64,000 nt of DNA, taken from positions 1-64,000 of the forward strand of contig CP084166.1 in assembly GCA_021513695.1 (NCBI GenBank). The letters run 5' to 3'. The DNA is from Candidatus Heimdallarchaeum aukensis. Its GTDB lineage: Archaea; Asgardarchaeota; Heimdallarchaeia; Heimdallarchaeales; Heimdallarchaeaceae. The notes beneath the pieces were generated by a model, which worked only from the letters and a program-made list of their open reading frames with translations, was not told where the DNA came from and ran no database searches. The position numbers were made by a program, and so were the translations under genes. Positions 20,120 to 48,987 of the stretch are shown piece by piece; the first letter of the stretch is position 1, and every line of letters starts with the position of its first letter.

Positions 20120-21751
20120 TTAATAAACTCTTTTGTTATCTTTAAAGACAAATAGTTTATTTGGATTGATATATACTTTTATTGTATCTCCTACTATTTT
20201 TGAGATTATTTTATCTAGTCCTTCTACAACATCAATAAGGAGAATAGTTCCGTCTTTAAGCAATCCTGTTAATTTGGCTTCTTTACCTAAATATTCTATC
20301 GTATGTATCTCAATTTCTAATTCAAAACAACCGTCTATATTCTTCAGAGAAACATCTTCTGGTCTTACAACAATAGCTAATTCAGTTCCTTTATCAATCT
20401 CTTCTTTAACCTCGATTTTTATTTTTTCTCCACCCTTTAGTTTAACGATTCCATCACCCTCGTAATTACCCATTAGAGTGGTTGATTCACCAATGAACTG
20501 AGCTACGAAGAGAGTTTTTGGATCATCCCACACTTCTCTAGGTTTACCGTATTGTTCAATGTAACCAACGTTCATAACCGCTATACGGTCACTAATTGCT
20601 AATGCTTCAGTTTGATCATGTGTTACATATACTGCAGTCATACCTATTTTCTTTATAATAGAACGAATTTCTGTTCTAAGCTCTTTTCTCAGTTTAGCAT
20701 CTAAATTGCTTAATGGTTCATCACAAAGCAAAACATCTGGTTCAACAACTATTGCTCTAGCTAAAGCAATTCTTTGTTGTTGGCCTCCACTTAATTCAGG
20801 AGGATTTTTGTAAGCTTGATCTTCAAGATGAACCATTTTCAGAGCGTCAAAGACTTTTTTTCTCCTGAAAGCCCAATCAGGGTCTATCTTTTCTTTACTA
20901 TCTAAATAAGCTTTTTTACTTTCTGAAAAAGGAAGTCTAACGTATTTCCATAGTTTAATTAAAAACCAAGTTATTTTAGCGACTGATGATGTATGTTTTT
21001 TTAAATATTCTTTTTTCTCTTTTTCTATTGTTTCAGAAACATATTTGTAGGTTAAAGGATGAAAAATAAAGAATGGTCGAGTTAAAGGATATAGCATGAT
21101 GTAAATTGGTTTCCTGTATTTTACTTTCTCTTCTTTAGTTTTTGTTTCTGGTAACCAATCAGGGAGTTCTCTGACGACATAGGAATAATGGTCTCTAATT
21201 GCTTTCTTTAGTGTCTTAAGCACATATTTGATATTTTTTAATTTAATTTTTGGATCATTCAGTTCTTGTTGGACTTCTTCAGTAGACAAATTCCAACATG
21301 TCTCAGTATTTTTGTCTTTGCAATAGTCAACAATGTATTCAGCTATTTTTTCTAATTGTTTAGTTGCACCATAACTCGAAAATGATAAGTCAGAAATTGT
21401 ATCTTTCTTTACTTTAATGAAAAAAACGATTTTTTCTTTTAATCTTAATTTTAGACCGTATTCAACATTTCCGAAAATGGACATATGAGGCCATAAAGCG
21501 TAATTTTGAAAGATCATTGCAGTATTTCTTTTTTGTGGAGGAAGTAAAGTAACATCTTTATCTCCTAAAAATATCTGACCTTCAAAGGGTTCAACGAATC
21601 CTGCTAATGAACGAAGTAATGTAGTCTTACCACAACCACTAGGACCAAGTAAAGTAGTAATCTCTCCGTCTGGTATTTCTAAATCAATATTCCTTACTGC
21701 AATAAAATCATCATAAGCAATTCCAATATTTTTGTATTTTACAGAAACCAA
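20120..21751 (-). CDS. ABC transporter ATP-binding protein (importer-type with C-terminal TOBE-like domain) carrying a ~190-aa insertion between Q-loop and signature motif
   Basis: Walker A 'GPSGCGKTT', Q-loop 'MIFQNY', signature 'LSGGQQQRIALARA', Walker B 'LLCDEP', H-loop 'VTHDQ'. The signature sits at about aa 322 instead of about aa 140. There is no adjacent permease or substrate-binding gene. Confidence 0.75.
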   Translation of the reverse strand: MVSVKYKNIGIAYDDFIAVRNIDLEIPDGEITTLLGPSGCGKTTLLRSLAGFVEPFEGQIFLGDKDVTLLPPQKRNTAMIFQNYALWPHMSIFGNVEYGLKLRLKEKIVFFIKVKKDTISDLSFSSYGATKQLEKIAEYIVDYCKDKNTETCWNLSTEEVQQELNDPKIKLKNIKYVLKTLKKAIRDHYSYVVRELPDWLPETKTKEEKVKYRKPIYIMLYPLTRPFFIFHPLTYKYVSETIEKEKKEYLKKHTSSVAKITWFLIKLWKYVRLPFSESKKAYLDSKEKIDPDWAFRRKKVFDALKMVHLEDQAYKNPPELSGGQQQRIALARAIVVEPDVLLCDEPLSNLDAKLRKELRTEIRSIIKKIGMTAVYVTHDQTEALAISDRIAVMNVGYIEQYGKPREVWDDPKTLFVAQFIGESTTLMGNYEGDGIVKLKGGEKIKIEVKEEIDKGTELAIVVRPEDVSLKNIDGCFELEIEIHTIEYLGKEAKLTGLLKDGTILLIDVVEGLDKIISKIVGDTIKVYINPNKLFVFKDNKRVY

Positions 21752-47231: not shown

Positions 47232-48443
47232 ATGAAGAAAGTAGATGGATTGTTAGAAGAACATGGGCGTTCTAAGATAGAAGTATATGTTGACTGGGAA
47301 AATGGAAATTATGTTCCAAAAGAAGTATTTGAAGCAATGAAACCTTTTTATCTAGAGCGAGGTTTTGCTAATCCTGCCATAACACATCGTTTAGGTTGGG
47401 AAACTTACGAACTTTATGTAGAAACAAAAGAAAAATTAGTTCAACCTTTGAATATTTCTCCTCAGGATTTCTATATTACACATGGTTTAACTGAATCCAA
47501 TAATATTGCTATTCGAGGGGTTGCCAAAGCAAATAAAAAGAGAAAGAAAATAATTACTTCTTCTGTAGAACATCTAAGTGTTATTCATTCTAGCAGATTC
47601 ATGGAAAGTCAAGGATATAAGATAGAAGAGATACCTGTATATAGTAATGGAATTATTGATTTAGACAGATTACAAGACATAATTGACGAAGAAACGCTTA
47701 TAGTAAGTGTGCAGTTAGCAAATCATGAAATTGGTTCAATTCAACCATTACGCGAAGTTATTGAAATCGTGAAGGACAAGAATAAGGATATTCTTGTTCA
47801 CTCTGATATGTCTGCAGCTTTTGGAAGAATGAAAATTGATCTAAACAAATTAGATATTGATTTAGCTACATTTGACAGTTCAAAGATTTTAGGTCCTAAA
47901 GGCGTTGGAGGTCTATTCGTAAAAGAAGGGGTACATGTTAAACCATTGCTTGAAGGTCAATTAAGTGTCGAAATTCTCTCTCCTGAAGTAGAAATTATGC
48001 CCTTGATTGCAGGTTTTGCAAAAGCAGTTGAATTACAATTTGAGAACTTTGATGAACATATTTCGAGTTTAACTAAATTAAGAAACAAACTTCTATATGG
48101 TCTTTATACAACTATTCCAAAAACATTAATTAATGGAGCAGAGGGTGAAAAGAGAATAGCTGATAATGTCAATTTAAGCTTCATAGGTTGTGAGGGCGAA
48201 GCTTTAACAGTAGAATGTAGCATGAATGGTATTTATACCTCAAGTGGAAGCGCGTGTTCTAGTAGAATTCTAATGCCAAGTCATATCTTAACAGCAATAG
48301 GTAGGCGACCAGAGGAAGCCCATGGTAGCCTTTTAATGAAGATAAGTCGTCTAAATACAGAAGCGCAAATTGAGTATATTTTAGAAACAATGCCTAAAGT
48401 AGTTACAAGACTTAGAAAAATTACAGGAAGTATTGAGCTATAG
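47232..48443 (+). CDS. iscS: cysteine desulfurase (IscS/NifS, class V aminotransferase)
   Basis: PLP lysine 'DSSKILGPKG' and active-site loop 'SSGSACSS'. Confidence 0.85.
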   Translation: MKKVDGLLEEHGRSKIEVYVDWENGNYVPKEVFEAMKPFYLERGFANPAITHRLGWETYELYVETKEKLVQPLNISPQDFYITHGLTESNNIAIRGVAKANKKRKKIITSSVEHLSVIHSSRFMESQGYKIEEIPVYSNGIIDLDRLQDIIDEETLIVSVQLANHEIGSIQPLREVIEIVKDKNKDILVHSDMSAAFGRMKIDLNKLDIDLATFDSSKILGPKGVGGLFVKEGVHVKPLLEGQLSVEILSPEVEIMPLIAGFAKAVELQFENFDEHISSLTKLRNKLLYGLYTTIPKTLINGAEGEKRIADNVNLSFIGCEGEALTVECSMNGIYTSSGSACSSRILMPSHILTAIGRRPEEAHGSLLMKISRLNTEAQIEYILETMPKVVTRLRKITGSIEL

Positions 48444-48474
48444 AAAATAATAAAAAATTAAATTAAAAGAAAAG

Positions 48475-48987
48475 GTGAAAAAGATGTCAAGTAGAATTCC
48501 TCTACCATATTCGCAAAGAGTGATAGAACTCTTTAAGAATCCAGTAAATTTAGGAAAAATGGATGATGCAACAGTATTTGCACAAGCAGGTTCTCCAGCA
48601 TGTGGAGATATGATTGCTTTTTATCTTAAAATAGATGAAAAAAAAGAAAAAATCACAAAATCCTCTTTTGAAAGCTTTGGTTGTGCATCAAATATCGCAG
48701 CAGCAAGTGAAGTAACTATAATGATCCATAATAAAACTTTGAAAGAAGCATGGAATATCAGTTGGAAAGACGTTTCTGATGCTCTTGGAGGGTTACCAAA
48801 AATAAAAAATCACTGTGGGACTCTTGCAGTTGGTGCATTACAAAGAGCTATTAGAAAATACTATACAACCATTAAGAAAGAAATACCCGATTGGTTACCC
48901 AAAGAATACACAAAAGATGAAAAACATGCTATGGAAGAAGAAGAGTTAGCAAAGAAACTTGCCAAAAAATATAACCTTTCAATCTAG
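48475..48987 (+). CDS. iscU: IscU/NifU-like Fe-S scaffold with ~40-aa C-terminal extension
   Basis: Three conserved Cys positions 'PACGD', 'FGCAS', 'HCGTLA'. Extension 'EIPDWLPKEYTKDEK...'. Confidence 0.8.
   Translation: MKKMSSRIPLPYSQRVIELFKNPVNLGKMDDATVFAQAGSPACGDMIAFYLKIDEKKEKITKSSFESFGCASNIAAASEVTIMIHNKTLKEAWNISWKDVSDALGGLPKIKNHCGTLAVGALQRAIRKYYTTIKKEIPDWLPKEYTKDEKHAMEEEELAKKLAKKYNLSI

Follow-up and report, generated by a model that had tools for sequence, protein, structure and literature searches.

An IscU-derived domain and a predicted aromatic helical arm within the helical subdomain of an importer-type ABC ATPase of Heimdallarchaeum

Why should an importer ATPase carry some 190 additional amino acids in its helical subdomain, the surface by which such ATPases face and communicate with their permease, and which permease would it serve if none is encoded beside it? 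The question is raised by a gene for an ATP-binding cassette (ABC) ATPase of 543 amino acids (aa) in Candidatus Heimdallarchaeum aukensis, on the minus strand of the 64,000-nucleotide stretch analysed here (contig CP084166.1, positions 1 to 64,000; hereafter the window). An earlier note, made from the sequence letters, had described it as an orphan ATPase with a large insertion between Q-loop and signature motif. As judged from its domain matches, the gene encodes an importer ATPase of the PotA/MalK/UgpC/FbpC group. The first part of the insertion, about half of its length, is, by sequence comparison, a copy, devoid of cysteine, of the lineage's own iron-sulphur (Fe-S) cluster scaffold IscU, shorn of its N-terminus and of all cluster ligands, and the remainder is predicted to form an aromatic-rich helical arm. 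We consider it likely that the protein is the trans-encoded nucleotide-binding subunit of a binding-protein-dependent importer, with the insertion as an accessory composite of IscU copy and arm. Coordinates of all features are collected in Table 1.

The reading frame begins with a TTG codon, and the N-terminus that follows from this start, MVSVKY, is common to all homologues. Because its upstream neighbour is divergent and its downstream neighbour convergent, the gene is monocistronic. All nucleotide-binding motifs are present and in order between residues 36 and 380, as the earlier note had stated, with LSGGQQQR at residues 320-327 where it had placed the motif at about residue 322. The ABC_tran match of Pfam (E 9e-32) is stretched across residues 20-347, and each of the best NCBIfam matches (PhnT2, PotA, UgpC and FbpC) consists of two stretches split by the insertion. 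No NCBIfam model among the PhnT2, PotA, UgpC, FbpC, MalK and WtpC equivalogs scores above its curated cut-off (PhnT2 323 versus 457.7, PotA 320 versus 482, WtpC 251 versus 440). Public annotation of the family reads either 'ABC transporter ATP-binding protein' or 'WtpC', and because of the low WtpC score the latter name, given in UniRef, is not supported. In an alignment of 99 homologues, some with the insertion and some lacking it, residues F81, Q82, Y84, A85, L86, P88, H89, N95, G99 and L100 of the Q-loop region are invariant together with the catalytic motifs, in insert-bearing and operon-encoded relatives alike. Because this core is intact and strongly conserved, the ATPase should still bind ATP, dimerise on it and hydrolyse it. 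It is 99% identical to a Candidatus Heimdallarchaeaceae protein and falls in a 90%-identity cluster that takes in UJG43651.1, from Ca. Heimdallarchaeum endolithica PR6, and UJG40877.1, from Ca. H. aukensis; the two genomes are circularised (described in PMC8813620).

The boundaries of the insertion follow from a phmmer comparison with the PDB. Residues 1-104 match residues 9-112 of 1v43, a Pyrococcus sugar-transport ATPase, and residues 298-508 match its residues 120-330, with ~193 residues of the window ATPase standing in place of a 7-residue loop. The spacer between YGLKLR and LSGGQQQR measures 216 aa, compared with 30 aa in 49 insert-less relatives, a net gain of 186 aa. The insertion occupies the helical-subdomain loop after YGLKLR, between Q-loop and signature motif, and its junctions read LR/LKEK and FRR/KKV. 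The size, site and start (about residue 104) given in the earlier note are borne out, while the end moves from about residue 292 to 297. Its view that the segment has no counterpart in standard ABC ATPases also stands: the 49 insert-less relatives lack it, and so does every solved ABC ATPase found in a Foldseek search of the PDB, in which template-modelling scores (TM-scores) normalised to the query were at most 0.61 and only the ABC core and TOBE domain were matched. The insertion carries no annotation in the precomputed Pfam records of proteins of this family.

The insertion does not look like an accident of sequencing or mobility. Overall GC content and GC content at third codon positions (GC3) in the insertion are the same as in the remainder of the gene, a search for flanking repeats found none, and the same 543-aa class of protein is present in independent assemblies, including two circularised genomes; because of these three observations, we exclude both an artefact and a recent mobile insertion. 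The window protein has no Pfam intein match, in agreement with the earlier note, and has neither the splicing motifs nor the Hint domain of an intein. An Intein_splicing match in one of 17 homologous insert segments (E 0.0097) is at chance level.

Alignment of homologues splits the insertion into four modules, A (residues ~104-211), B (~212-231), C (~232-278) and D (~279-297), of which A is the one that can be traced to a known family. Pfam NifU_N matches the window ATPase at 24.3 bits (cut-off 22) and independently matches 7 of the 17 homologous insert segments. When an insert profile was compared with all PDB sequences, the top 24 matches were all IscU/NifU proteins (best E 4e-4), and hhalign gave a probability of 93.9% for the insert against E. 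coli IscU. A word-seeded search with the insertion alone gave no match, IscU proteins being reached only by exhaustive profile search: among 1.84 billion representative proteins there were eight matches at E <= 0.001. Two of these belong to the same ABC family (P0022, and P0125, an 87-aa fragment resembling module A of the ~500-aa class) and four are small IscU-like proteins (E 6e-11, 1.6e-10, 6.5e-4 and 8.7e-4); the source of two calls them NifU-like, and the cluster of one takes in a Heimdallarchaeota scaffold protein. The remaining two are long repetitive proteins matched over short repeated stretches only, which we take to be spurious.

The window itself encodes an IscU, and BLASTP aligns module A with it at 34% identity over 105 aa (E 2e-17). 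The aligned stretch includes a lineage-specific motif, PDWLP..TK.EK, and the lineage-specific tail through which it runs reads EIPDWLPKEYTKDEK in IscU and ELPDWLPETKTKEEK in the insert; tblastn with this IscU finds the ATPase gene as the sole other IscU-like region within the 64 kb. Module A begins at IscU residue ~44; the first ~43 residues, including the segment with C37 and D39, are absent, and the remaining ligand positions are changed, C63 to A, H105 to K and C106 to N (ligands in E. coli numbering C37, D39, C63, H105 and C106). No conserved Cys is found among the 17 aligned homologous insert segments, whereas the fold-defining residues W50, I82/R83, P94 and W96 (insert numbering) are invariant in them. 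Module A has the fold and sequence family of IscU but not its cluster ligands, three Cys plus Asp/His. Because all of these ligands are missing, canonical Fe-S cluster scaffolding by module A is ruled out. Read from these alignments, module A is a degenerate copy of the lineage's own scaffold, and the window IscU is its paralogue and is likely to represent the donor type. The earlier note had allowed for the insertion being commonplace and already annotated within a known ABC subfamily; the domain is a known one, but not in ABC proteins.

The iscS-iscU pair of the window (47232-48987, plus strand) is of the archaeal minimal type, and the C-terminus of its IscU has an extension particular to the lineage, PDWLP..TK.EKHA..EEE. 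Both genes fall within a block that is syntenic with relatives and contains Aminotran_1_2, MFS, GT4 glycosyltransferase, iscS-iscU and EamA genes.

The rest of the insertion is of a different nature. Module B is an aromatic core of the form KPWYxxxFWLTKPYYWI, module C is a variable helix-turn-helix plus a second aromatic stretch, and module D has the form KKxYLDxKxxxDPxWxFRR; B and D are present in all insert-bearing homologues and are never lost. The structure prediction that the earlier note had proposed yields a compact, well-packed insertion of a beta-hairpin and helices. The AlphaFold2 model of the full protein, built with 99 homologues, has a predicted local distance difference test score (pLDDT) of 95.7, with values above 90 for most residues, and a predicted TM-score (pTM) of 0.89; the insert modelled alone takes the same fold (pLDDT 96.6). 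In the module A region the model has a beta-hairpin (residues 108-126) and helices (131-193) followed by a loop (194-215), and the arm consists of four helices (216-230, 232-252, 256-289 and 291-306), the last of which passes the insertion boundary at residue 297. In the Foldseek comparison, the model matches the whole MalK-type chain including the TOBE region and superposes on MalK, PotA, MsmX and FbpC chains with TM-scores of 0.8-0.9 normalised to the target. A transmembrane segment in the insert is ruled out by a maximum Kyte-Doolittle 19-residue mean of 1.4. The Wimley-White interfacial score of module B is -6 to -8.5 kcal per 19 aa, versus -2.3 to -3.3 in insert-less relatives, and its membrane-interface propensity is by far the highest in the protein.

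How widely is this architecture shared, and in which direction has it changed? Neighbour-joining restricts the insertion to one monophyletic Heimdallarchaeota clade inside a larger set of Heimdallarchaeota importer ATPases. At 90% identity the clade resolves into 43 clusters; 22 GTDB species representatives belong to it, each assembly yielding one copy, so that the conservation which the earlier note had wished to see checked extends to a single clade with five length classes. Counted over the species representatives, these are +186 aa in Heimdallarchaeum (modules A+B+C+D), +139 to +161 aa in 10 species (A+B+D), +83 to +85 aa in 7 species (B+C+D), +60 aa in 2 species (truncated C) and +45 aa in 2 species (B+D). 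The window ATPase is the most complete of these nested forms and the first to branch in the tree. Of the 22 representatives, 21 have kept their reading frame intact, the exception being a short truncated contig. Mean pairwise identity among insert-bearing homologues is 0.79-0.83 in the N-terminal and 0.84-0.88 in the C-terminal part of the nucleotide-binding domain, 0.6 in TOBE, 0.45 in module A and 0.28 in module C; the insertion evolves faster than the ATPase core.

Short forms nest within long-form groups in the trees. Outside the insertion, P0041 (B+D, 401 aa) is 88% identical to P0005 (A+B+D, 497 aa) and 73-74% identical to other B+D proteins, and P0043 is 82% identical to P0003. The most economical reading of these neighbour-joining trees would be that the ancestor possessed all four modules and that losses then occurred repeatedly. 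However, the short B-D insert of P0041 resembles the inserts of other 401-aa short forms, which hints at exchange of insert cassettes by recombination as an alternative to simple deletion.

If the ATPase belongs to an importer, its partners must be sought elsewhere. No permease or binding protein is encoded within 10 kb on either side of the ATPase gene, in the window or in four relatives read from the main size classes. Over that distance the earlier note's 'orphan' is accurate. In the wider sister group, the insert-less relative P0047 lies in an operon of an SBP_bac_8 substrate-binding protein (SBP), a fused double BPD_transp_1 permease and the ATPase; in the immediate sister insert-less clade, the ATPase gene is found either 3 kb from an SBP and permease pair or alone. 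Heimdallarchaeaceae have the orthologous SBP (~495 aa) and fused permease as a conserved gene pair (43-49% identity), with no ABC_tran gene within 10 kb of it. In the complete genome of Ca. H. endolithica PR6, a 90%-identical +186 ATPase is encoded at ~60 kb and the SBP and permease pair, whose permease is UJG44768.1, at 1.44-1.46 Mb, ~1.39 Mb away, and Ca. H. aukensis encodes both the +186 ATPase and the SBP and fused-permease proteins. The best NCBIfam models are PhnT2 for the ATPase, PhnU2 for the permease and PhnS2 for the SBP. Because a matching ATPase-less pair is encoded in closely related complete genomes, the ATPase is probably not a true orphan, and 'orphan' is probably a matter of gene order and not of function. 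The partner membrane protein that the earlier note had suggested looking for thus has a candidate, although we infer the pairing of the ATPase with this SBP and permease in trans from gene content and phylogeny.

The Heimdallarchaeaceae permease carries an LVIVD beta-propeller region of ~320-430 aa, inserted after its first membrane helix, and is 955-1100 aa long, compared with ~640 aa in other Heimdall lineages. Permease and presumed ATPase have both gained large lineage-specific domains. Among the neighbours of the SBP and permease pair is a gene of the sulfatase/phosphodiesterase family, and in PR6 a 236-aa gene without family match directly follows the permease. An LVIVD protein encoded near the P0003 gene was considered as a permease and ruled out, the match being confined to the LVIVD part. 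The window also contains a complete ABC importer operon, whose two ATPases are 37-41% identical to the target ATPase in their best BLASTP segments. We ruled it out as a partner, since it has two ATPases of its own and a permease of a different family at about 23% identity. Its 366-aa ATPase has a degenerate signature motif, LSAPELQK, which suggests that this importer may be a heterodimer with one non-canonical site.

In the reading that we favour, the ATPase gene would have been separated from the permease and binding-protein genes in Heimdallarchaeaceae, its product still working with both in trans. Two ATPase copies under the fused permease would close on ATP and drive uptake of cargo from the ~495-aa binding protein. 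The best explanation of the family matches is that this importer would belong to a Fe3+/2-aminoethylphosphonate-like (PhnS2/T2/U2-like) group. The arm and the IscU-like head would lie at the membrane-proximal rim of the ATPase, where the insert might act as a brace against the permease or the lipid surface, fitting the aromatic module B, as a docking surface for another protein, or in the regulation of coupling. Because modules A and C are dispensable in many species, we view the insert as accessory and outside the catalytic cycle; a protein-protein contact or regulatory surface, or a membrane- or permease-proximal brace, is more likely than canonical cluster assembly. On alignment to E. coli MalK, the insertion loop would be equivalent to MalK residues 103-107, beside the permease coupling-helix cleft. 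Cross-linking of MalK at K106, V114 and V117 reportedly places the loop near this cleft. A more daring extension, to which we give little credence, is that the IscU-derived module makes the cytoplasmic face of the importer dock IscS and/or IscU and so couples uptake to cluster biogenesis, in which case the cargo may be iron or Fe-S-relevant. If true, it would amount to a device for direct hand-off, or for feedback, between transporter and scaffold, of a kind not described for any ABC system.

Several observations weigh against a trans-encoded importer subunit. The proposed pairing draws, indirectly, on complementary gene content and phylogeny, and the absence of an ATPase gene beside the permease pair refers to the 10 kb on either side of the permease. 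All NCBIfam matches fall below their curated cut-offs and give no substrate assignment. A 190-aa body near the coupling-helix site might clash with a canonical permease. Finally, the ATPase gene shows recurrent but loose synteny with iscS-iscU, 9-26 kb away, which might instead point to a functional connection with Fe-S biogenesis.

This last point leads to a different account, in which the protein would be a soluble, non-transport ABC ATPase of Fe-S biogenesis, its IscU-like module docking IscS or IscU as a mimic or adapter and its ATP-driven dimer closure serving as chaperone or regulator. HscA/HscB and SufC have comparable roles in other systems. The paralogy of module A with the cell's own IscU, the lack of an adjacent permease in any lineage examined and the location of the gene in a conserved block with iscS-iscU would all fit. 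However, a PotA/MalK-type importer domain followed by a TOBE tail forms the core, which is not of the SufC type: transporter ATPases account for all of the top 25 NCBIfam matches and all of the top PDB matches, and SufC for none, which leaves no basis for SufC/SmsC membership, and no SufB-like gene (SufB/SufD, SmsB) lies within 10 kb on either side of the ATPase gene. The coupling face around the Q-loop is invariant in insert-bearing and operon-encoded relatives, and an ATPase-less SBP and permease pair of the matching family is present in the same genome. Module A seems to have been lost more than once from a gene that itself persisted, as in P0041 and P0043, which outside the insertion are 82-88% identical to A-bearing proteins, and the 9-26 kb in question form a syntenic block with many unrelated genes. 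We think a role in Fe-S biogenesis without transport quite improbable.

Could the insertion instead be a tolerated passenger, a duplicated iscU fragment plus helical filler in a permissive surface loop, slowly decaying and without a function of its own? Its low identity in modules A (0.45) and C (0.28) against that of the nucleotide-binding domain (0.79-0.88), the nested series of shrinking versions from +186 down to +45 aa and the loss of all cluster ligands are what such decay would leave behind. Yet the reading frame remains open in all but the one truncated representative, the fold-defining residues of module A do not vary in the 17 aligned segments, the AlphaFold2 model is compact and confidently predicted over most residues, and modules B and D have never been lost, so that we judge this explanation unlikely. 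A reading as intein, as footprint of a mobile element or as artefact of assembly or frameshift has the size and position of the extra segment in its favour and nothing else; with no intein motifs or Pfam intein match, no flanking repeats, GC and GC3 as in the remaining gene and the same architecture in independent assemblies, circularised genomes included, we set it aside with near certainty.

Around the ATPase region, the two flanking open reading frames (ORFs), of 990 and 118 aa, have no Pfam match. A TnpB/Cas12f-like ORF opens a GC-richer stretch (0.37 versus about 0.30) at 26-30 kb and lies between the ATPase gene and an aminotransferase gene, which are immediate neighbours in other species; because of this separation, a rearrangement or insertion near the ORF is indicated. 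Further on, two convergent genes encode giant proteins with Beta_helix/NosD and bacterial TSP3 repeats, which are probably surface proteins.

Table 1. Features of the window (positions in the 64,000-nucleotide stretch) and, in the last three rows, candidate permease genes of related lineages (positions in their own loci)
Feature	Residues	Coordinates	Strand	Evidence or remark
ABC ATPase, PotA/MalK/FbpC-type nucleotide-binding domain and TOBE, monocistronic	543 aa	20120..21751	-	ORF, Pfam, NCBIfam, PDB matches
N-terminal part of nucleotide-binding domain	1-103	21443..21751	-	PDB alignment, homologue alignment, motifs
Walker A, GPSGCGKT	36-43	21623-21646	-	
Q-loop	81-89	21485-21511	-	
Insertion, net +186 aa versus standard relatives	104-297	20861..21442	-	PDB and homologue alignments, spacer length
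Module A, IscU-derived domain, N-terminally truncated, without cluster ligands, lineage-specific tail ELPDWLPETKTKEEK	~108-211	21119..21430	-	Pfam, profile searches, BLASTP, tblastn
Modules B-D, predicted aromatic-rich helical arm	212-297	20861..21118	-	Homologue alignment, structure model, hydropathy
C-terminal part of nucleotide-binding domain	298-420	20492..20860	-	PDB alignment, homologue alignment, motifs
Signature motif, LSGGQQQR	320-327	20771-20794	-	
Walker B	340-346	20714-20734	-	
D-loop	348-351	20699-20710	-	
H-loop	376-380	20612-20626	-	
TOBE_2 regulatory domain, C-terminal	~421-543	20123..20491	-	PF08402 24.1 bits, cut-off 21; structural match
Flanking ORF	118 aa	19600-19956	+	No Pfam match
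Flanking ORF	990 aa	23018-25990	-	No Pfam match
TnpB/Cas12f-like ORF	485 aa	26343-27800	+	PF07282, zinc-ribbon CxxC pairs
Giant repeat protein	962 aa	32259-35147	+	Beta_helix/NosD and bacterial TSP3 repeats
Giant repeat protein	1038 aa	35498-38614	-	Beta_helix/NosD and bacterial TSP3 repeats
Cysteine desulfurase, IscS/NifS-like, paired with IscU	403 aa	47232..48443	+	
IscU scaffold, Cys/Asp/His ligands intact	167-170 aa	48475..48987	+	Probable ATG start 48484
ABC importer operon: binding protein, 572-aa fused permease, ATPases of 366 and 384 aa		51728-56979	+	Followed by PhoU_div gene, to 57613
LVIVD-fused ABC permease gene, L050		10001-12916		
LVIVD-fused ABC permease gene, L051		10001-12871		
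LVIVD-fused ABC permease gene, L053		10001-13237		

Whatever its present role, the insertion offers a clean, datable case in which the cell's Fe-S scaffold gene would have been copied into a transporter ATPase, lost its ligands, and was then kept, trimmed or lost by species. The five length classes form a natural deletion series for the tolerance of the ABC coupling face. Should IscS or IscU still be recognised by the IscU-like module, the protein would tie solute uptake to Fe-S biogenesis in the lineage of archaea that stands nearest to eukaryotes. For annotation, neither 'orphan' nor 'WtpC' is a supported label for this family.

Compared with known systems, the window ATPase has the same core fold, catalytic motifs, Q-loop region and TOBE tail as ATPases of the MalK/PotA/FbpC/MsmX type (1v43, 2it1, 2r6g, 8y5f, 9j4r), but in these the helical subdomain carries no inserted domain. 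MsmX, for one, is known to be encoded apart from the permeases it serves. The candidate system shares its best models and its fused two-module permease architecture with PhnS2/PhnT2/PhnU2 (TIGR03261/03265/03262), a putative 2-aminoethylphosphonate system. However, its scores lie far under the cut-offs (323 versus 458, 140 versus 593 and 46 versus 393), and because this holds for all three, the substrate is not assignable; the candidate permease also carries the extra LVIVD domain, unlike permeases of the PhnS2/T2/U2 type. The Heimdallarchaeota IscU paired with IscS constitutes a minimal system of the MIS type (PMC12192291). IscU/NifU_N scaffolds are free-standing and keep their ligands, whereas module A is embedded, lacks the ligands and the N-terminal ~43 residues and, unlike the IscU of the Heimdallarchaeota IscS-IscU pair, has no adjacent desulfurase.

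In the literature searched, neither an ABC ATPase with an internal IscU-like domain nor this ATPase family is described, and we know of no whole-domain insertion described in the helical subdomain of a binding-protein-dependent importer. Insertions between Q-loop and signature motif are familiar from soluble ABC proteins, namely the coiled coil of Rad50/SMC, the insertion domains of UvrA and the arm of ABCF/EttA. The topological insertion site is the same, but their hosts do not take part in transport and the inserted folds are other ones. In the window ATPase, by contrast, the host is of the importer type, and what it carries at that site is an IscU paralogue joined to a predicted helical arm.

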